Shown in pieces: positions 11,461 to 39,142 of a stretch of DNA of 64,000 nt. Position numbers and translations under genes: made by a program. Numbering within the stretch: the stretch's first letter is position 1; the number at the start of each line of letters is the position of its first letter. Under the pieces are notes generated by a model. That model was given only the letters and a program-made list of their open reading frames with translations. It did no database searches and was not told the DNA's origin. Origin of the DNA: an uncultured Candidatus Saccharibacteria bacterium (GTDB lineage: Bacteria; Patescibacteriota; Saccharimonadia; Saccharimonadales; UBA10212); contig CAYWQH010000002.1 of assembly GCA_964460855.1 (NCBI GenBank), positions 7,506 to 71,505 on the forward strand. Direction: 5' to 3'.

Positions 11461-12039
11461 ATGGATAAGCTTTATTTGCCGGTTTTAGAGGGTACGTTGC
11501 GGGTGCAGCGCAAAAGTATATATGCCGCCCGACTGGTAGCCGAAATCGGCAATACTTTTGAAGAAGTTGAAACCGAAGTTATCGACCCCCAAAACTTTTA
11601 TTTTCCGCACGACGGCAACGACCCGGAAGGTAAAGACCACCGCTATACCGAAGTAACGGCCCGGGCAGACGGCTTTTTTATAGTATCGCCGGAGTACAAC
11701 CACAGCTTTCCTGGCTCACTTAAACGCATGCTGGATAGCGAGCTGGAAAATTATATTCACAAACCAGTAGCGATTGCCGGCGTTTCTAAAACCCCGTGGG
11801 GCGGCATTAGGATGATCGAAGCACTGCTGAGCCCGCTGCGCGAAATGGGCATGGTAGCAACATTTGACGACATGCAGTTCCCGAAAATCCAGGAATTGTT
11901 TAACGAAAAAGGCCAATTGCAAAACGAAGCATACCGCGAATATATAAAAACCGCTTGGACGGAGCTCATTTGGATGGCTAAAACTCTTAAACACGGCCGC
12001 CAGAATATCCAAAGCAAATACCACCAAAACCCGCACTAG
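11461..12039 (+). CDS. NAD(P)H-dependent FMN reductase family protein
   Basis: FFIVSPEYNHSFPGSLKRMLD is the characteristic FMN_red motif, and the 192-aa size fits. Confidence 0.8.
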   Translation: MDKLYLPVLEGTLRVQRKSIYAARLVAEIGNTFEEVETEVIDPQNFYFPHDGNDPEGKDHRYTEVTARADGFFIVSPEYNHSFPGSLKRMLDSELENYIHKPVAIAGVSKTPWGGIRMIEALLSPLREMGMVATFDDMQFPKIQELFNEKGQLQNEAYREYIKTAWTELIWMAKTLKHGRQNIQSKYHQNPH

Positions 12040-12042
12040 AAC

Positions 12043-12071
12043 TTTACAAAAAATTATAAATATTGTAGGGT
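12043..12071 (+). promoter_or_regulatory. promoter-like box of cassette 1 (TTTACA-17 nt-TAGGGT)
   Basis: TTTACA at 12043-12048 and TAGGGT at 12066-12071 are separated by 17 nt, with TG just upstream of the -10. The same architecture recurs at 13116-13144. Confidence 0.4.
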
Positions 12072-12145
12072 ATTGGTAAGGACAGAGTACTGCCCAGTGC
12101 TCTCACATGGTTGGTCCAGTAAACCATACAACTAGGGAGGGACCG
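12072..12145 (+). promoter_or_regulatory. conserved structured leader of cassette 1
   Basis: It aligns with 13145-13214: AGGACAG, a hairpin (12085-12102), TGCTCTCACATGGTTGGTCC, then the RBS AGGGAGGG. Confidence 0.45.
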
Positions 12146-13027
12146 ATGGCTACGAACTCCGCTGACAAGGCGCGGAGGTTGTTCACTTCCTGCTGCGAGC
12201 TATTCGAGCAGGCTATGTTGCGCGATGTGACGTACTACGCGGGCCGCAGGCCCGATGCCAGCGGCAAGATCATCGAGCAGTGCTTCGGTTCGCTGGTGGA
12301 ACTCGAAGGCCAGTGCTGGAACTTCGACGTCGTCGTCGCCCTGTACCCACCGAAGATCCTGGACTTCGAACTTGTGCTCGTTGAGCGTGACGACCACAGT
12401 GCCCGGATCCTGATCGAAGATGGCAAGCTGACTGACAGGAAGCGCCTGGCTCCCATGCTGGAGCGGGCTCTACCTAGCGGCTTGGTCTTCCCGGAGATGA
12501 AGCGTGTCTTCGGCTACGCGCCGCATGGCACAGTCGTCGAGCTCGGCTGGTTCTTCCGAGACAAAGTCGACGTCAAGTACAACAAGGCCGGCGACACCTA
12601 CCCGCTGAAGTGCGACTACCCGAAGTTCATGTCGGGCAGCATTGGCGGCACGGCCCACATTCCGGGCTATGCGAAAGGCAAGCTGCCGATGGCGGACTTC
12701 TGGCGGCTGGTGGACGCCGGCCTGATGGTCGACTACACGCAGCTGATCGCTGACGCGCCGGAGATGTTCAGCTACCACAAGATGATGAATAGCGAAAACG
12801 CGTTCATCCGCTACGACGGCGACGCCGACCTGGGTCCGTTCCCGCCCGGACTAACCCTCTGGTACAAGGAGCCGTCGGAGATCGACCTGCAAGGCTCATC
12901 GTCGGCTGAAGAGATCGTCGACATCCGCCGGACGCTCGGCAACATCCTCAAGCGTGACCGGCCGTCGCGCCCTAATCAGCGGATCCGGGCTTCCATGAGG
13001 CGCCAGACCAAGGCGCTCGCCGCCTAA
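12146..13027 (+). CDS. orphan high-GC protein, paralog A (293 aa), ends ...TKALAA
   Basis: The ATG at 12146 sits after AGGGAGGG and aligns with the paralog B start. Codons are strongly GC3-rich. Blocks shared with paralog B include ADFWRLVDA and RYDGDADLGPFP. No domain recognised. Confidence 0.75.
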   Translation: MATNSADKARRLFTSCCELFEQAMLRDVTYYAGRRPDASGKIIEQCFGSLVELEGQCWNFDVVVALYPPKILDFELVLVERDDHSARILIEDGKLTDRKRLAPMLERALPSGLVFPEMKRVFGYAPHGTVVELGWFFRDKVDVKYNKAGDTYPLKCDYPKFMSGSIGGTAHIPGYAKGKLPMADFWRLVDAGLMVDYTQLIADAPEMFSYHKMMNSENAFIRYDGDADLGPFPPGLTLWYKEPSEIDLQGSSSAEEIVDIRRTLGNILKRDRPSRPNQRIRASMRRQTKALAA

Positions 13028-13040
13028 CCTGCGGCAACTT

Positions 13041-13098
13041 CGCCCCCGAGCGCGTTTCGCAATGCGAAGCGCCCCTGCTCGGGGGCGCTTCCATGTTT
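13041..13098 (+). terminator. conserved 58-nt GC-rich long hairpin (cassette 1 3' element)
   Basis: CGCCCCCGAGCGCGTTTCGCA-A-TGCGAAGCGC(CCCT)GCTCGGGGGCG forms the hairpin, with no U tract after it. It is nearly identical to 14088-14145. Confidence 0.6.
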
Positions 13099-13115
13099 AT
13101 AAACCATAAGAAAAC

Positions 13116-13144
13116 TTTACAAATTTTTAACTTTATTGTAGTGT
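13116..13144 (+). promoter_or_regulatory. promoter-like box of cassette 2 (TTTACA-17 nt-TAGTGT)
   Basis: The spacing and flanks (AACTTTACAAA...ATTGTAG) match cassette 1. Confidence 0.4.
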
Positions 13145-13214
13145 AATAGTCAGGACAGGGCAGTAATGCTCTCATGGTTGGTCCTAGACACAATCATCTT
13201 TAAAGGAGGCCGGC
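13145..13214 (+). promoter_or_regulatory. conserved structured leader of cassette 2 with 9-codon uORF
   Basis: AGGACAG is followed by the hairpin GGGCA-GTAA-TGCTC and then ATGGTTGGTCC. The uORF at 13174-13203 (MVGPRHNHL*) has a TAA that abuts the AAGGAGG RBS. Confidence 0.45.
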
Positions 13215-14078
13215 ATGGCCACCGACCCTGACATCACTGTTAGGGAGTTGTTCGTCGCTTGCGGCGAGCTGTTCGACCGGGCCGAGGCCCGAGGCGCTGC
13301 GCAACATGGCAGCCCCACCTGGAACTCCGACAAGATCATCCAGCAGTACACGCGCTGGGCGCTCGTCGACCTCGACGGCCGCTGTTGGAAGATCACCCGG
13401 ACAATGGGGCCGGATACGCCCCATGACGTCCAGTTCTACTCGTTGGAGTTCCGCACTCCACACGCCATTCGCGTGTACACCGTGTCGAGCGACCGGTTGG
13501 AGGGAAGCGTGTGCGATGCCACGAGGCTGCTAGCCAAGCTGCCCGTCGGCGAAGTCATCCCGCCGATGACCCGCATGTACGGCTTCGCGCCGGAGGGCAG
13601 GGTCGTCGAGCTCGGCCAGTTCAGCCGGCACACGTACGCGGTGTCAGTCAAGGGGATCGACAAGCCCTGCGAGGTGGCCTATGGCTACCCGTTCCTCTCG
13701 CGCAGCAGCGTCGACGGCACGCCGCACATCCCGGGCTTCATCGAGGGCATGCTGCGGGCGGCGGACTTCTGGCGGCTGGTGGACGCCAGCCAGATGATCG
13801 ACCTGACGGAGCTGATCGCCAAGGCGCCGGCGCCATTCTTGTACCACGAGATGCCCAGTGGTAACGGCTTCAACCGATACGACGGCGACGCCGACCTGGG
13901 TCCGTTCCCGGCCGGCATCAACTACTGGTACCGGCCCCCGAGCAAGGCCGATGCCGAGCACCAGACCGCGGACGTGAAGACGACCGACCGCCGTCCGATT
14001 CTCGCCGACAAGCTCGAGCAGTGGGCGCTGCATCCGGACGACTACCTCAAGCGGTACGCTCCCGGGTTCGCCGCCTAA
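13215..14078 (+). CDS. orphan high-GC protein, paralog B (287 aa), ends ...APGFAA
   Basis: AAAGGAGG lies 6 nt upstream of the ATG. GC3 is very high. It is colinear with paralog A at the protein level. Confidence 0.75.
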   Translation: MATDPDITVRELFVACGELFDRAEARGAAQHGSPTWNSDKIIQQYTRWALVDLDGRCWKITRTMGPDTPHDVQFYSLEFRTPHAIRVYTVSSDRLEGSVCDATRLLAKLPVGEVIPPMTRMYGFAPEGRVVELGQFSRHTYAVSVKGIDKPCEVAYGYPFLSRSSVDGTPHIPGFIEGMLRAADFWRLVDASQMIDLTELIAKAPAPFLYHEMPSGNGFNRYDGDADLGPFPAGINYWYRPPSKADAEHQTADVKTTDRRPILADKLEQWALHPDDYLKRYAPGFAA

Positions 14079-14087
14079 CTGCACCCA

Positions 14088-14145
14088 CGCCCCCGAGCGC
14101 GTTTCGCAATGCGAAGCGCCCCTGCCCGGGGGCGCTTCCATGTAT
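14088..14145 (+). terminator. conserved 58-nt GC-rich long hairpin (cassette 2 3' element)
   Basis: The sequence is the same as 13041-13098 except for T->C in the 3' arm and one base in the tail. Confidence 0.6.
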
Positions 14146-20557: not shown

Positions 20558-20641
20558 GGGCGAGTGGTGGAATGGTTTACACAGCGGACTTAAAATCCGT
20601 GCCCGCAAGGGTTGTGGGTTCGACTCCCACCTCGCCCACCA
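20558..20641 (+). tRNA. tRNA-Leu (anticodon TAA), class II, CCA encoded
   Basis: Acceptor GGGCGAG/CTCGCCC, anticodon loop CTTAAAA, a long variable arm, and T arm GTGGG-TTCGACT-CCCAC are present. Confidence 0.9.
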
Positions 20642-20661
20642 TCAAATTTTGCATAATTTCT

Positions 20662-20817
20662 GCAAAATTTGATGATCCTGAGCGAGAAGCCGGAAGGCTT
20701 CGAGTCGAAGGACCCGTACTGTTGCGTTAGCTGTTTAATCCTTTAAAGCAAAATTTGATGACCCTGAGCGAGAAGCCGGAAGGCTTCGAGTCGAAGGACC
20801 CGTACTGATGCGTTAGC
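20662..20817 (+). repeat. two 70-bp direct repeats (68/70 identical) separated by 16 bp, in the tRNA-Leu trailer
   Basis: The copies lie at 20662-20731 and 20748-20817: GCAAAATTTGATGA(T/C)CCTGAGCGAGAAGCCGGAAGGCTTCGAGTCGAAGGACCCGTACTG(T/A)TGCGTTAGC. A partial third tail, GGGCCCGAACTGAG, lies at about 20840-20853. Confidence 0.8.
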
Positions 20818-20906
20818 GATTTATTATCGGCGCGTCGCAGGGCCCGAACTGAGTAAATTGCTACTAAATTTGCTATACTAAAACCAATATCTTAAGGAGA
20901 AATTAA

Positions 20907-21549: not shown

Positions 21550-22422
21550 ATGTACAACGCAATAGCCAGCAATAAACGGCGGACAATCGTTTTGATGTTC
21601 GCTTTTGTCCTGATTCTTTTGGGTTTGGGTTGGGTGATTGGCAAAGCCACTGGCCATCCGCAATACTTTTTGGTGATTGGGATAGGTTCGATTTTATATT
21701 CGATATTCACTTACTTTGCCGGCGCTAAAATGGCCCTGGCAGTAAACGGCGCCAAAGAAATCCAAAAAGCCGACAACCCCCGCTTGTGGCGGACGGTAGA
21801 AAACCTGGCCATTACCGACGGTCTGCCTATGCCAAAGGTATATATTATGAACGACCCGGCGCCAAACGCTTTTGCTACCGGGCGCGATCCCAACCATTCG
21901 GCGGTCTGCGCTACCTCAGGCTTACTAGAAATTATGGATGATACCCAGCTACAAGGCGTTATTGCCCACGAGCTAGGGCATGTGCAGAATTATGATATGA
22001 GGGTAAATACTATCGCTTTCGCGCTGGTAGGCATAATTTCGCTGGTATGCGACTTTTTCTTGCGGCTGTCTTTTTGGGGCGGCGACAATGAGAATAATAA
22101 CAACAGCGGCCTATTCCAGCTTTTGGCAATTGGCGCAGTTATACTGGCGCCAATTGCGGCCAGCTTACTGCAGCTGGCCGTTAGCCGCCGCCGCGAATAC
22201 CTGGCCGATGCCAGCGGTGCCTTAGCCACGCGCTACCCCGAGGGCTTAGCCAGCGCTTTGGAAAAACTAAAACAAACCGGCAGCGCTACCCAAAAACAAA
22301 ATGCCAGTACGGCCCATATGTTTTTTGCCAACCCGCTAAAAGGGCACAGTTTGCTTAATTTATTCAGCACCCACCCCCCACTGGACCAGCGAATTGCAAG
22401 ACTGCGGGAAATGAAGCTTTAA
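21550..22422 (+). CDS. htpX: M48 zinc metalloprotease HtpX
   Basis: The HELGH motif, REYLADA, TM helices and the position downstream of lemA all fit. Confidence 0.9.
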   Translation: MYNAIASNKRRTIVLMFAFVLILLGLGWVIGKATGHPQYFLVIGIGSILYSIFTYFAGAKMALAVNGAKEIQKADNPRLWRTVENLAITDGLPMPKVYIMNDPAPNAFATGRDPNHSAVCATSGLLEIMDDTQLQGVIAHELGHVQNYDMRVNTIAFALVGIISLVCDFFLRLSFWGGDNENNNNSGLFQLLAIGAVILAPIAASLLQLAVSRRREYLADASGALATRYPEGLASALEKLKQTGSATQKQNASTAHMFFANPLKGHSLLNLFSTHPPLDQRIARLREMKL

Positions 22423-22440
22423 TTTAGCTATAATATAACT

Positions 22441-25333
<2,893 letters not shown>

Positions 25334-25480
25334 CAAGACTTTAACATTAGCGCTTAATGGAATGTATCTTCGCGCAACTGGGGCCCGCAACTTCCAGCTG
25401 CGGAAATGATCATACAAAAACCGAAACATAAACAGCTACACACCCGGGCCCGGGTGGGCTGCGCGAAGTATCAGCTAAAG

Positions 25481-25517
25481 ATGCCGCACTTATTTGGATG
25501 TGCGGCGTCTTTTTTTG
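25481..25517 (+). terminator. intrinsic terminator 150 nt downstream of ligA
   Basis: GCCGCAC/GTGCGGC forms the stem with a 10-nt loop, followed by GTCTTTTTTT. Confidence 0.65.
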
Positions 25518-25714: not shown

Positions 25715-25791
25715 GGGGCATTAGCGCAGTTGGCTAGCGCGCTTCCATGGCATGGAAGAGGTCATCGGTTCGAATCCGATATGCTCCACCA
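25715..25791 (+). tRNA. tRNA-Ala (anticodon GGC), CCA encoded
   Basis: Acceptor GGGGCAT/ATGCTCC carries G3:U70. The anticodon arm is CTTCC-ATGGCAT-GGAAG and the T arm is ATCGG-TTCGAAT-CCGAT. Confidence 0.9.
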
Positions 25792-25899
25792 TTCGACTCG
25801 CTTCGCTCGCTCATGGTAAACCAGCCGTGAGTGTCCGTTGCGATCCGTATTGAAGCGAGTCGAATGGTGCCCTGAGCGAAGTCGAAGGGCACGAACTGA
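25787..25899 (+). repeat. tRNA-Ala trailer element: 18-bp inverted repeat overlapping the CACCA end, plus a CCTGAGCGA-AGTCGAAGG hairpin
   Basis: CACCATTCGACTCGCTTC (25787-25804) is the perfect complement of GAAGCGAGTCGAATGGTG (25853-25870). It is followed by the hairpin GTGCCCT-GAGCGAAGTCGA-AGGGCAC and then GAACTGA. The element is related to the tRNA-Leu trailer repeats. Confidence 0.55.
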
Positions 25900-25978
25900 A
25901 TTTTATATAGGCTATATAACAACAGAATTTCAGCTAAAAAGCATCGGCTTTAAGTTGTAAACTGTTACAATTAAGTCC

Positions 25979-36108: not shown

Positions 36109-36606
36109 ATGCGCCATAAAGTAGTAGCCGTAGACCCGCCAAAGCTGAGCACTGAACAATGGCAGCTGGCCGGCGTAGTCGGCGTATTACTTGTAAGTTT
36201 CGCACTGTGCCAGGTTTTTTCTTTCCAGCATTTTACCGACAGTTTACAAATTATGGGCCTGAGCGGCACTTCCGGGCTGGGAGTAATGATTATATTAATG
36301 GAGTTATGGGGCGCAGCTTGCTGCTTCCGCTTAAAACTTAGTTCGCTTTTCAGGCTGGTTAGCGCCACGTTTATGGTATTGGTTACCGGACTATGGCTCG
36401 AGATATCGCTGCAAGCCCTGGTTAAAAATAACCCGGTTGAATCATTGGGCTTATGGGGCAGCCTGGTTGGTATTCCGCTGAACTGGCTTACCGTAGCTAT
36501 GCTGGCCGCATTATTCTTAACCAGCGTGCACGTCGGAATATTAGTACATGGAGATATGCGCAAGTTAAAATTAAAGAATAAAGCGGCTAATAAAAGGAGG
36601 AAGTAA
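36109..36606 (+). CDS. hypothetical membrane protein (165 aa, 4 TM)
   Basis: Hydrophobic profile only. I chose it over the antisense ORF at 36039-36563 because of its TM periodicity and its stop abutting sodA. Confidence 0.55.
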   Translation: MRHKVVAVDPPKLSTEQWQLAGVVGVLLVSFALCQVFSFQHFTDSLQIMGLSGTSGLGVMIILMELWGAACCFRLKLSSLFRLVSATFMVLVTGLWLEISLQALVKNNPVESLGLWGSLVGIPLNWLTVAMLAALFLTSVHVGILVHGDMRKLKLKNKAANKRRK

Positions 36607-37202
36607 TGTTTACGTTACCCGAACTTGGTTATGAATATAATGCCCTCGAACCGCATATCGATGCCCAAACCATGGAAATCCATTATTCTAAACATCACGC
36701 TACTTACGTAACTAAGCTAAACGAAGCTTTAGCTAACGCGCCGGATTGGAACAACCAGCCTATTGAGCAATTGTTAACTAATTTAAGCGATGTTCCGGCC
36801 GAACTGCAAAACGCCATTCGAAACAACGGCGGCGGCCACCATAACCACACTTTGTTCTGGGAATCGATTAAACCCGGCGGCAACCAAATGACACCAAAAA
36901 TTACAGCCGCCCTGGAAATTGCTTTTGGTACGGTGGAAGATTTTAAAACGATTTTTACTAATGCCGGTTTAAACCGATTTGGATCCGGCTGGGCCTGGCT
37001 GGTCAAGCATAATGACAATCTGGAGGTTATATCTACCGCCAACCAGGACAGCCCCTTAAGCCAATCGATGACGCCAATATTAGGCTGCGACGTTTGGGAA
37101 CACGCTTATTATCTTAAATACCAAAACCGGCGGCCCGATTATATCGCGGCTTTTTGGAATGTCGTTAACTGGAATATTGTAGAACAAAGGCTTTCCGCGT
37201 AA
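36606..37202 (+). CDS. sodA: Fe/Mn superoxide dismutase
   Basis: LPELGYEYNALEPHID...HHSKHH...GGGHHNH...DVWEHAYY is the canonical Fe/Mn-SOD pattern. Confidence 0.95.
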   Translation: MFTLPELGYEYNALEPHIDAQTMEIHYSKHHATYVTKLNEALANAPDWNNQPIEQLLTNLSDVPAELQNAIRNNGGGHHNHTLFWESIKPGGNQMTPKITAALEIAFGTVEDFKTIFTNAGLNRFGSGWAWLVKHNDNLEVISTANQDSPLSQSMTPILGCDVWEHAYYLKYQNRRPDYIAAFWNVVNWNIVEQRLSA

Positions 37203-37357
37203 TCAAGCCCAACTTGATCCACGTTATATAATAATATTGCGCCAAGGAATACTGTCTAGCACGGAACGTCACCATCTAGACGGCGGTTGAGGCCCCGGTA
37301 TAGTCGCATCCAAATATTGGGGAATCCCGGGTATCGCCCTGTTCCGAATAGCGTGGT

Positions 37358-37439
37358 TTAACTGAGCTTTTGGTAAAGCATTTCACTGAGACGGGGGGCG
37401 TCACTGTGAAAAGAGTAGGTTCGATTCCTGCCAGTTGAC
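37358..37439 (+). ncRNA. tRNA-like element lacking an anticodon loop and lacking CCA
   Basis: The acceptor pairs TTAACTG/CAGTTGA over 7 bp (one G-U). The D arm is GCTTT-TGGT-AAAGC and the T arm is GTAGG-TTCGATT-CCTGC. The anticodon and variable region is replaced by a 12-bp hairpin (2 mismatches) capped by GGGGG. Confidence 0.5.
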
Positions 37440-37535
37440 TTAGCGGGCACGCCACGTTGGGATCTGCCTTGAGGGGTAGGTTGAAGCCCAATGCCCGCTA
37501 TAGTAGGGCTGCCGCCAAAACGGCACCCTACACCC

Positions 37536-37575
37536 GGCCTGGATTCCTTCGGGGGTCCAGGCCATTTACTTTTTA
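37536..37575 (+). terminator. intrinsic terminator ending ORF-free transcript 1
   Basis: GGCCTGGA/TCCAGGCC form an 8-bp stem with an inner CC-TTCG-GG, followed by ATTTACTTTTT. Confidence 0.65.
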
Positions 37576-37598
37576 GCCTAATAATTATATAATTAGTA

Positions 37599-37836
37599 TA
37601 TACGAGCCGGGTTTGGGATTCGTATCCGCTGCGCGGATACTTCAGCCAGGCTGGCGGCCACCGAGCGGGGAGCCCGTGGCCGTAGAGTCCCCTGGGGCGC
37701 CCGGAACGTATAGAAACGGTAGTATGGCGCAAGCGCCGTGCAAGTATCGCGGGTAGCCCGCCATACCCGTTTCAAAGCGGAGGTAACACTCTGCTGGACC
37801 CGTGCATCTTCGGATGCACGGGTCCTAATTCTTTTA
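37599..37836 (+). ncRNA. unclassified structured RNA candidate (about 235 nt) with its own terminator
   Basis: It follows an AT-rich TATAAT/TATATA spacer. Long-range helices pair 37599-37611 with 37700-37712 and 37714-37727 with 37761-37772. Nested GC hairpins are present. A 13-bp stem with a UUCG loop (37796-37825) plus TAATTCTTTT ends it. Confidence 0.4.
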
Positions 37837-38484
37837 TGAGCCTAAAATATTTACGGCGCGGGCGGCGACCAGGCCGATTGTTAGTAAAGATACGATTGCC
37901 TGGGTACCCATTAGCATCTTAGTTATATGGGTCAGCGGCAGGGTATCGGTGGGGCTGAAAGCGGTGGCATTTGTCATGGAAACGTATTGATAGTCAAAAA
38001 AGGTCGGTTTCCATTTGTTATCTTCGGGCCGGCCGGATACGAATTGCGGAAACTGGAAATGTTTTAAAGCCAGCTTGTTATGAAAGCCGGTGAGTCCGGG
38101 GCTGTCAATTTCCCAATACCATAATCCAAACACAATAATATTTGTAAGAAAAATCGCCAGTGCCGCGCCGATTAATTGGCGGCCCGGTACGGTTGAGCCG
38201 TGGACTAAGGCCCAAATTACTTTATTAAGCGAAGCTATATTAGCCAGCGAAATTAAAAATATTAGAGCCAGGGCAATGCCGCGGTTGATGCTGCCGGTAT
38301 TTAAATGCCGCCGGGGCGCGGTTATTATAACTGCCAGCAATAAGACCAATTCAATTCCGGCAAATAAATATTGCGGCCCGGCAGCCAGGCCGGGGTTTAA
38401 CGTAGCCTGCAAACTAATGGCGATCGCTAAGGCGATCTCGGCGTGCAGCAGTTCTTTTTTGGTTATTTCGGTTCCCAGGCTCAT
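37834..38484 (-). CDS. DUF1345-family membrane protein
   Basis: The polytopic protein has a WYWEIDSPG...FFDYQYVSMTNATAFSPTD region typical of DUF1345. Confidence 0.75.
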   Translation of the reverse strand: MSLGTEITKKELLHAEIALAIAISLQATLNPGLAAGPQYLFAGIELVLLLAVIITAPRRHLNTGSINRGIALALIFLISLANIASLNKVIWALVHGSTVPGRQLIGAALAIFLTNIIVFGLWYWEIDSPGLTGFHNKLALKHFQFPQFVSGRPEDNKWKPTFFDYQYVSMTNATAFSPTDTLPLTHITKMLMGTQAIVSLLTIGLVAARAVNILGS

Positions 38485-38497
38485 TTGTCTGGCTTTC

Positions 38498-39142
38498 TTA
38501 TTTAACTCTCGTACAAAGATCGGCAGTTACCATTGCGACATTTGTGGTGCCTTTATAGGTGCCAGAGGCACGGCCTACACCAACAAATCTGAAATCTTTA
38601 GAAAGTATTATACTTCTGTGAGTCGCAGACGACATCCATGAGTGTACGACTGCTGCCGGAGCAGTGTAGCTTTGGGTGCCCCATTGTAAAACTTCGCCCA
38701 TATAGCCTGCTCCGCAGACCAATGACATGCGTTGCGCAGCTGTTGTACCGCCCGGCGTGGTATGTGAAAAATAATCACGATTTATCATATCTGCTGAGTG
38801 GCGGCGGGCAACAGTAGTTAAACCCCCGTCGGCGCTAAGTGCCGGAACTCCAACTTTAGCGCGCTCTATATTAATATCTTTTAAAATGCTTAGCTCAATG
38901 GTACTGGGGGTAGTATTACCTACGTAGGTAAGGCTGGTAGCTGAGGTATTTACAGTGCCTGTGCTGTTAACACTATAAGCATCGATTATCGTTGAGCTTG
39001 CCGCTTCAATTGGTTTTGTTTTATTGTCTAAATATTGCCCAACTCCAATAAACACGCCCACCATTATTAAAAGTCCGACTATTGATATAGGTATATAATT
39101 TTTCTTAATAAATTTTTTTGATTTCGTTTGTTTTTTAGCCAT
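38498..39142 (-). CDS. CAP/SCP (PR-1-like) domain protein with N-terminal membrane anchor
   Basis: ARRHSADMINRDYFSHTTPGG...HSWMSSATHRSIILSKDFRFVGVG are CAP domain motifs. Confidence 0.85.
   Translation of the reverse strand: MAKKQTKSKKFIKKNYIPISIVGLLIMVGVFIGVGQYLDNKTKPIEAASSTIIDAYSVNSTGTVNTSATSLTYVGNTTPSTIELSILKDINIERAKVGVPALSADGGLTTVARRHSADMINRDYFSHTTPGGTTAAQRMSLVCGAGYMGEVLQWGTQSYTAPAAVVHSWMSSATHRSIILSKDFRFVGVGRASGTYKGTTNVAMVTADLCTRVK

Follow-up and report, generated by a model that had tools for sequence, protein, structure and literature searches.

Transfer RNA (tRNA)-like structures that do not decode act as processing signals in several settings, among them the t-elements of plant mitochondria, the mascRNA of MALAT1 and the TMERs of murine gammaherpesvirus 68 (MHV68), in which the tRNA-like part is followed by hairpins, and the expected effect is that the flanking RNAs are separated endonucleolytically by RNase P or RNase Z. 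We know of no bacterial chromosomal example with such a tRNA-mimic architecture. Here we examine a 64,000-nucleotide (64-kb) stretch of DNA, hereafter the window, from an uncultured Candidatus Saccharibacteria bacterium of the order Saccharimonadales (contig CAYWQH010000002.1), in which the gap between the convergent genes sodA and a DUF1345-like gene holds two structured modules oriented on the plus strand, the first of which contains a tRNA-like cloverleaf without an anticodon loop. In the reading that we favour, and to which we give about an even chance, these are two expressed noncoding units, unit 1 (module 1) carrying a "blinded" cloverleaf that serves as a processing handle or mimic and unit 2 (module 2) giving a stable RNA, probably of the protein-binding type. 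This reading is built on the anatomy of the gap, its strand, its excess folding stability, its lack of coding relatives and its insertion relative to other genomes, from which we infer the transcription, processing and function of both units. A tRNA-mimic unit on a bacterial chromosome, with an orphan structured RNA beside it and in a streamlined genome of the Candidate Phyla Radiation, would be a new form of the known tRNA mimics.

The closest described systems each share some features with this locus and differ in others. With t-elements, mascRNA and TMERs it shares a non-decoding cloverleaf within a longer, here putative, transcript, with stem-loops after it; those systems are eukaryotic, organellar or viral, whereas the window element is bacterial and chromosomal and its cleavage is a prediction. 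Like the tRNAs of RF00005 and pseudo-tRNAs, such as the bacterial tRNA-Other of Bacillus cereus, it has a complete acceptor stem, a D arm with GG, a T arm with UUCGAUU and the gene layout typical of its genome, but it departs from them in its anticodon arm, several diagnostic residues, its 3' end and its score, as detailed below. YrlA (RF02553) is likewise a bacterial noncoding RNA with a tRNA mimic that has D-like and T-like arms, but there the Ro-binding stem, made by the two termini, lies at the anticodon side and the acceptor side is closed, so that the topology of the window element is the reverse; Rfam gave no YrlA match in the window, and no rsr gene turned up among the open reading frames (ORFs) scanned, which cover a part of it. 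Small RNAs derived from the spacers of tRNA operons, such as 3'ETS-leuZ of Escherichia coli, are freed from tRNA leaders or trailers by tRNA-processing nucleases, but the tRNAs are genuine there, while the tRNA part of the window locus is non-decoding. GOLLD (RF01998) and ROOL are large, ornate RNAs often linked to tRNAs, and resemble the locus in having several hundred nucleotides (nt) of dense structure beside or around a tRNA or tRNA-like element; the locus has no Rfam match to them at any threshold, an internal terminator and promoter that make two units, and no multi-species conservation. Finally, group I introns that disrupt the anticodon loop and are missed by standard tools have been described in tRNA genes of Patescibacteria, the same phylum (PMC13011429); the insertion in the window element is of only 14–19 nt.

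Two Structured Modules Between sodA and DUF1345

The gap (37203–37833, 631 nt, delimited by Pfam and the ORF list) had been characterized in a preliminary description, made from the letters alone, as ORF-free, GC-rich and highly structured. ORF-free it is in any credible sense, by the ORF list, Pfam and protein searches, except that the ORFs present are not confined to the minus strand, as had been stated, since short plus-strand ORFs of 33–47 amino acids (aa) also occur. No other intergenic stretch of the window is as rich in GC: the GC content is 0.548 (0.634 in the core of module 2), compared with 0.484 for the window as a whole and 0.34–0.50 for its other gaps, which are mostly short; such a level is not that of decaying DNA in a streamlined genome of 48% GC. 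All the elements that had been listed were found again where they had been placed, and their coordinates, with those of newly recognized features, are collected in the table.

Features of the sodA–DUF1345 junction (positions in the window)
Feature	Position	Strand	Basis and details
sodA (Fe/Mn superoxide dismutase), left flank	36606–37202	+	Pfam Sod_Fe_N/Sod_Fe_C, E 1e-29 to 4e-40
Candidate promoter of module 1, CACGTTATATAATAATA	37220–37236	+	TATAAT -10-like box at 37227–37232; no good -35
5' domain with GC-rich hairpins (GUCUAG..CUAGAC, GGCCCCGG..), preceding the tRNA-like element	37239–37357	+	Minimum free energy (MFE) fold
Second, weak promoter-like site in the 5' domain, TAGACG-16-TATAGT	37277–37304	+	Promoter scan
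tRNA-like element	37358–37439	+	Rfam tRNA RF00005, 28.6 bits, E 0.001; 16-nt insertion in alignment
Hairpin H1, perfect 9-base-pair (bp) helix UAGCGGGCA/UGCCCGCUA around an inner hairpin	37441–37500	+	Repeat search, MFE
Hairpin H2, UAGGG(C)UGCCG-CCAAAA-CGGCACCCUA	37504–37530	+	MFE
Intrinsic terminator T1, 12-bp stem (37536–37563), UUCG loop, tail AUUUACUUUUU	37536–37575	+	Terminator scan
Promoter-like site of module 2, TTTACT-17 nt-TATAAT (10/12), in AT-rich palindromic spacer	37565–37593	+	Promoter scan
Domain A, P1 UAUACG/CGUAUA, P2 CCGGGU/GCCCGG, P3 GGGAUUC/GAGUCCC around three hairpins	37599–37712	+	MFE, same as centroid
Domain B, three-way junction GAAACGG/CCGUUUC with two hairpins	37713–37773	+	MFE
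Hairpin C, AGCGGAG-GUAACA-CUCUGCU	37776–37795	+	MFE
Intrinsic terminator T2, perfect 13-bp stem (37796–37825), UUCG loop; T-tract overlaps DUF1345 stop codon	37796–37836	+	Terminator scan
DUF1345-like membrane protein, right flank	37834–38484	-	Pfam 19.9 bits, weak, under the Pfam cut-off

The division into two units, each bounded by a plus-strand terminator, is borne out by the terminator scan, which recovers both with UUCG loops and T-rich tails, and on the minus strand a T-run follows neither hairpin. The spacer that had been proposed as the divider (37564–37598) has a GC content of 0.14 and holds the promoter-like site of module 2, whose transcript would have its first bases in the closing helix P1. 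The helices that had been picked out by eye largely reappear: the perfect 9-bp helix TAGCGGGCA/TGCCCGCTA of module 1 is exact in the repeat search, and TAGGG(C)TGCCG/CGGCACCCTA of module 1 and TATACG/CGTATA, CCGGG/CCCGG, GTATCCGC/GCGGATAC, GGCCAC/GTGGCC, GGCG-CAAG-CGCC and GCGGG-UAG-CCCGC of module 2 lie in the minimum-energy folds. The second closed domain of module 2, given as AAACGG..GTATGG, is retained in its outer part (GAAACGG/CCGUUUC), while its inner GTATGG/CCATAC pairing is an alternative only, the MFE fold pairing GUAUGGCG with CGCCGUGC. The modules have in common the -10 context TTATATAAT, their UUCG-looped terminators and a tail TTTT..AGCCTAA, and are not duplicates of each other, since their local alignment scores no better than shuffles.

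The folding stability of the gap exceeds chance by two measures. Against dinucleotide shuffles (200 for module 2), module 2 has a z of -7.5 and module 1 a z of -3.5; the MFE and centroid folds of module 2 are identical, and the mean probability of its MFE pairs is 0.96. When the MFE was regressed on composition over 2126 windows of 240 nt spanning the 64 kb, windows of the gap ranked 1, 2 and 4, and the other comparable sites were only real tRNAs and one site inside a peptidase gene. This latter site (22021–22260), which ranks 3 of 2126, lies within an M48 peptidase gene (21550–22422). The gap folds better by 34 kcal/mol on the plus strand (-282.6 versus -248.6 kcal/mol on the minus strand), with 21 rather than 13 G-U pairs, and this is also the strand on which the tRNA-like element, both terminators and the TTTACT-17-TATAAT promoter lie.

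The tRNA-Like Element

The tRNA-like element that had been seen in the first module is a near-complete cloverleaf, both in the Rfam alignment and in the unconstrained MFE fold of its 82 nt, which is clean. It has an acceptor stem of 7 bp (UUAACUG/CAGUUGA) with discriminator C, a D arm GCUU-UUGGUA-AAGC, and a T arm GUAGG-UUCGAUU-CCUGC whose loop fits UUCRANY. In the anticodon arm, ~13 bp form a closed, irregular helix (UUUCAC.U.G.A.GACG/CGUC.A.C.U.GUGAAA) capped by a run of G, and the 7-nt anticodon loop is absent in the cmscan alignment and the MFE fold alike; the element therefore cannot decode. It can present the acceptor/T-arm "elbow", which RNase P, like other tRNA-handling proteins, recognises. 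It has A8/U14 rather than U8/A14, one residue is missing between the acceptor and D stems (no residue 9), and UUAGC follows it without an encoded CCA, which all 5 real tRNAs of the window encode. Its score is under the Rfam gathering cut-off (28.6 versus 29 bits), and it is absent from the run at that cut-off.

Default ARAGORN makes no call in the gap, and with introns allowed it reads the element as tRNA-Leu(gag) interrupted by an intron of 14 nt. This call was rejected because the variable region, of 3–4 nt, forms no long arm and residue 73 is C, whereas tRNA-Leu of bacteria carries A73 and a long variable arm. Splicing of the archaeal or eukaryal bulge-helix-bulge kind was rejected because the putative splice sites lie within a near-continuous helix, and a group I intron because the insertion of 14–19 nt is a simple hairpin with no match to RF00028; 14 nt is far below the size of a group I intron with its P3–P9 catalytic core.

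Around the cloverleaf, module 1 shares the plan of the tRNA genes of this genome. In the real tRNA genes of the window, for example tRNA-Ala (25715–25900) and tRNA-Leu (20558–20830), long trailer hairpins are followed by a terminator, and in module 1 H1, H2 and T1 follow the cloverleaf in the same way. Upstream, CCACGUUAU (37219–37227) pairs with AUAGCGUGG (37348–37356) in the MFE fold, closing a domain that starts right behind the sodA stop codon. No terminator was found by the scan between that stop codon and 37536, so that read-through from sodA into module 1 is as possible as initiation within it. That the CUGAGCGA..GUCGAAGG repeats might form a hammerhead was considered and discarded, as Rfam gives no match for them.

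Searches for Known RNAs, Coding Content and Mobile DNA

Rfam 15 at its gathering score finds nothing in the gap, and at E<=10 with lax filters (segments of 851 nt and 206 nt) it returns only the sub-threshold tRNA and fragments at chance level. The best trace of a housekeeping RNA is an RNaseP-T fragment (8.9 bits, E 7.8), with none for the signal recognition particle (SRP) RNA or 6S RNA, and transfer-messenger RNA (tmRNA) is found neither by ARAGORN, with or without introns allowed, nor by Rfam at E<=10. The folds agree with this: the cloverleaf of module 1 is contiguous, unlike the tRNA-like domain of tmRNA, which is formed by the 5' and 3' ends, and module 2 is multi-branched rather than a 6S-like rod. 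The covariance-model search and ARAGORN thus uphold the earlier impression by eye that neither module matches tmRNA, RNase P, SRP, 6S or a riboswitch.

On the protein side, the longest ORF of the gap (124 aa, minus strand) has no Pfam match and 0 matches in 1.84e9 representative proteins, and a six-frame concatenate of the gap has 0 matches in 5.8e9 proteins, which indicates that gene callers have not annotated a homologous region elsewhere by mistake. Searches with blastn yielded only chance matches of 23–40 nt in phages and plasmids and no second copy of the gap in its own 64-kb window; viral contigs held no relatives of it, only three unrelated phage tRNA arrays. A purine/pyrimidine-degenerate pattern for the module 2 junction had 0 matches in the metagenome collection, and in 0.74 Mb of collected loci a covariance model built on module 2 recovered nothing but module 2.

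The Junction in Related Genomes

The gap closes a conserved string of genes, nusB-NUDIX-rnc-rpsP-KH-trmD-hypothetical-sodA, and lies opposite the gene of the DUF1345-like membrane protein, for which 6538 homologues were found, the named ones belonging to Candidatus Saccharimonadales/Saccharibacteria. The wider neighbours among the ORFs scanned are housekeeping genes (LeuRS, Mur ligase, glgB-like, peptidases), with no integrase or transposase among them. The identical sequence is present in two Logan assemblies, SRR9179563 and SRR9179562.

Syntenic relatives have little or nothing in common with the window at this position. In the relative L089, whose DUF1345 protein is 57% identical, the sodA and DUF1345 genes overlap by 4 nt; in L001 (UBA6824) they are 14 nt apart; and in L084, the closest relative (69%), the junction holds 160 unrelated nt. 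These distances of 0, 14 and 160 nt in Saccharimonadales indicate that the ~630 nt are an insertion in the lineage of the window and not a conserved housekeeping locus. Of 80 loci recovered by scanning genome contigs with sodA, the best at 63% identity, none has a comparable gap, and neither the DUF1345 homologues nor the nine contigs encoding them showed a conserved gap. The junction thus tolerates insertions. The 160-nt insert of L084 (1202–1361) is itself flush with both stop codons and has perfect 10-nt terminal inverted repeats (AACCCATCTC/GAGATGGGTT), so that it resembles a miniature inverted-repeat transposable element (MITE) or a long bidirectional terminator.

Within the window, a direct repeat borders module 2 (TTTTTAGCCTAA at 37570, TTATGAGCCTAA at 37834), and TTATATAAT, at 37224 and 37585, borders module 1. 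Removing module 2 together with one repeat copy would give the DUF1345 protein the C-terminus NILG*, as long as the NILH* and NILA* of relatives. The border repeats and the restored C-terminus, which were noticed post hoc, are suggestive of cassette insertion. Beyond the DUF1345 gene, tRNA-Gln(ctg) stands next to it in relatives; in the window the two are within ~0.8 kb of each other, with a gene for a secreted protein of the CAP/SCP family (38498–39142) between them; as DUF1345 and tRNA-Gln(ctg) adjoin in L084 and L089, the CAP-family gene is a second lineage-specific insertion beside the gap.

A Possible Relative and Other Structured Loci

A degenerate pattern for tRNAs with a long anticodon arm was searched in the metagenome collection and gave 120 loci with 106 distinct matches, mostly intron-bearing or unusual tRNAs, among which only one locus, L156, looked related to the window. 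L156, a 2277-nt part of contig Ga0194110_10000008, is from Saccharimonadales and carries its element between helicase and Dus genes; the protein index has no entry at 100% identity to its helicase. The CACGTTATATAATAATA box of module 1 matches CACGTT-TATAATAATA of L156 at 16/17 positions (motif search and blastn-short), and there it belongs to a perfect TTGACA-17-TATAAT promoter. The order of elements is that of the window, namely the box, a GC-rich structured leader, the tRNA or tRNA-like element, GCCCGCUAU..AG.GCUG, and a terminator followed by CUUUUAGCUAAU. The D and T arms are near-identical to those of the window element, CCA is not encoded, and the anticodon arm can close into a GGGG-tipped helix; among the 106 distinct pattern matches, only L156 and the window have such a closed arm tipped by G4 or G5. 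The whole 536-nt stretch of L156 folds with a z of -6.5, and the two loci share a modest excess of short matches (6 high-scoring segment pairs of at least 16 bits, where shuffles average 1.6 and reach at most 5). For YrlA, L156 gave only a 15-bit T-arm overlap. L156 may serve as a lead, and is no proof of a family.

Two further Saccharimonadales contigs, L214 (2868–3350) and L215 (2637–3100), contain noncoding stretches of ~420–480 nt downstream of a UvrD/PD-(D/E)XK helicase gene and upstream of Dus, with a consensus promoter in L214. Both are closed by a long-range helix, GACAGGAAU../..UAUUCCUGUC, whose 3' side is identical at 14/14 positions and is followed directly by a terminator; they fold with z of -13.2 and -7.0, have no Rfam match, and look like an undescribed large structured RNA family. 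Small ORFs (48 aa with a ribosome-binding site; Cys-rich) are contained in them. The 5' strand of the closing helix recurs in L156 at 1736–1758, where the tRNA-Gln-like gene is enclosed. Membership of the window in this family was rejected, because the closing helix GACAGGAAU/UAUUCCUGUC is absent from it.

In a high-GC organism, an identical tRNA-like element with a long closed anticodon arm occurs in L113 (233–297), L133 (4321–4385) and L144 (7047–7111), and in L133, the only one of these whose context was examined, it is wedged exactly between a pair of convergent genes. Closed-arm tRNA look-alikes at convergent junctions may be more widespread than the lineage of the window.

Other structured sequences in the window are associated with real tRNA genes. 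An element CTGAGCGA..GTCGAAGG..ACUG, a hairpin with a conserved loop that belongs to no Rfam family, is present as two tandem copies of ~86 nt after tRNA-Leu (20666–20820) and as a shorter copy after tRNA-Ala (25865–25900), 3 matches being observed where 0 are expected. Upstream of tRNA-Ala, an orphan unit resembling a small RNA gene (25331–25515) has a TTGACA box and a long-range helix CUUCGCGCA/UGCGCGAAG, and ends with a terminator GCCGCAC..GUGCGGC plus seven U; Rfam matches there are at chance level only. The region 12000–14100 stands out by its GC content of 0.59–0.63 versus ~0.48 for the window and by two ORFs (306 and 287 aa) lacking a Pfam match, and may be a foreign island.

Proposed Mechanism and Alternative Explanations

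Our proposal is that both units have been inserted, in this lineage, where the sodA and DUF1345 genes meet stop codon to stop codon. Unit 1 (~37239–37575, ~335 nt) would consist of a promoter-like box, a leader, the cloverleaf, trailer hairpins and a terminator, with the cloverleaf acting as a tRNA mimic for RNase P and possibly for 3'-end enzymes. Cleavage of the primary transcript, or of a read-through transcript of sodA, would free the 82-nt tRNA-like RNA from a structured 5' fragment and a 3' fragment rich in hairpins. Unit 2 (~37600–37836) would be transcribed from its own TTTACT-17-TATAAT promoter and end at T2, giving a very stably folded RNA of ~235 nt. Since ~70% of the bases of module 2 are paired, we infer for this RNA a protein-binding or scaffold role rather than that of a base-pairing regulator.

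Several observations weigh against this proposal. The promoter of module 1 has a poor -35, and the simple promoter scan did not call its CACGTTATATAATAATA box. Many helices of the gap are perfect and long, which fits young or DNA-level palindromes equally well. No homologue of module 2 was found by nhmmer, blastn or the covariance model in the collected loci, phages, plasmids and viral contigs, and the only other copies of the gap (L081–L083) are identical to it, so that no covariation is possible. L156, for its part, is a real tRNA-Gln by Rfam (53 bits), nhmmer finds no similarity between it and the window, and its tRNA arms were imposed by the search pattern. That the modules are something new, as the preliminary description had suggested, is possible, but conservation in relatives, the test which that description had set, does not bear it out: one weak and distant relative of module 1 (L156) was found, and close relatives lack the insertion.

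A bolder version of the proposal would make the element of the window one member of an undescribed class of Saccharimonadales tRNA mimics that moves among intergenic sites (sodA-DUF1345 in the window, helicase-Dus in L156), with the L156 copy residing inside the family of L214 and L215, and module 2 a wholly new RNA. We regard this as doubtful.

The serious rival is that the gap is a decaying insertion relic without function, in which 14 nt inserted into the anticodon loop inactivated a tRNA gene, itself duplicated or imported, and left it there with passenger DNA; only the hairpins terminating the convergent genes would matter. We consider this unlikely, while granting that the variability of the junction speaks for it: relatives have 0, 14, 160 or 212 nt there, of unrelated content, and the L084 insert with its 10-nt terminal inverted repeats is a different one. 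The features that are universal in tRNAs (residues 8, 9 and 14, the CCA and the anticodon loop) are broken, and the homology searches made did not find conservation. A relic would, on the other hand, hardly be expected to fold in a strand-specific manner so far above what its composition predicts, nor to keep its cloverleaf arms intact and have its inserted bases form a clean helix instead of random damage. The placing of a consensus-like promoter exactly before the 5' closing helix of module 2, a GC content over that of the genome and of its intergenic DNA, and the shortness of most other gaps in the window also disfavour it, and streamlined genomes seldom keep junk DNA.

Rather improbable, in our view, is a purely DNA-level explanation, in which the gap is a mobile or recombination element (a MITE-like cassette, the remnant of an element carrying a tRNA-like attachment site, or serial cassette insertions) and its RNA structure is incidental. 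The insertion relative to other genomes, the direct repeats at the borders of both modules with the restored length of the DUF1345 C-terminus, and the occurrence of a tRNA-like unit in another genomic context in L156 would all be accounted for, but the border repeats are short and AT-rich and were found post hoc, and the repeat search found no terminal inverted repeats. Also against it are the housekeeping neighbours without integrase or transposase among the flanking genes scanned, the single copy within the 64-kb window, and the lack of matches in the phage, plasmid and viral collections.

Module 1 might instead be the 3' untranslated region of sodA, its tRNA-like element being an RNase P signal that defines and stabilises the 3' end of the sodA mRNA in the manner of plant mitochondrial t-elements or of mascRNA in MALAT1; this overlaps in part with our proposal and, as a separate explanation, seems quite improbable. 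The uninterrupted path from the sodA stop codon to T1, the poor -35 of module 1 and the CCACGUUAU/AUAGCGUGG pairing immediately behind the stop codon fit it, but sodA of the relatives lacks any such element, the matching box in L156 is part of a perfect promoter, and module 2 is left unexplained. Scarcely credible, finally, is a reading as highly divergent housekeeping RNAs (tmRNA, RNase P RNA, SRP RNA or 6S RNA), one of the two options of the preliminary description, or as an intron-bearing tRNA, for although the sizes of 235 and 335 nt lie in a suitable range and ARAGORN can be made to call a tRNA-Leu(gag), the searches for known RNAs were negative, the intron and variable region do not fit, and the locus is absent from the syntenic relatives, as essential RNAs would not be, with no homologue of module 2 in the searches made.

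Implications

Saccharibacteria have genomes of ~1 Mb with very little spare DNA, and to our knowledge almost nothing is known about their noncoding RNAs. That the most structured stretch of 64 kb, together with a "blinded" tRNA, is found in such a streamlined genome makes its neutrality unlikely. Even as a relic, the locus would show how tRNA genes and terminator cassettes are shuffled into the convergent junctions of such genomes. Should a class of tRNA mimics exist, its members could act as processing-dependent regulators or as protein decoys in a reduced, epibiotic cell. If the two units are expressed and processed, module 1 would provide, in bacteria, an equivalent of the tRNA-like processing handles that have been described in organelles, in viruses and in long noncoding RNAs of mammals, and orphan structured RNAs would be added to a phylum in which they have hardly been catalogued.

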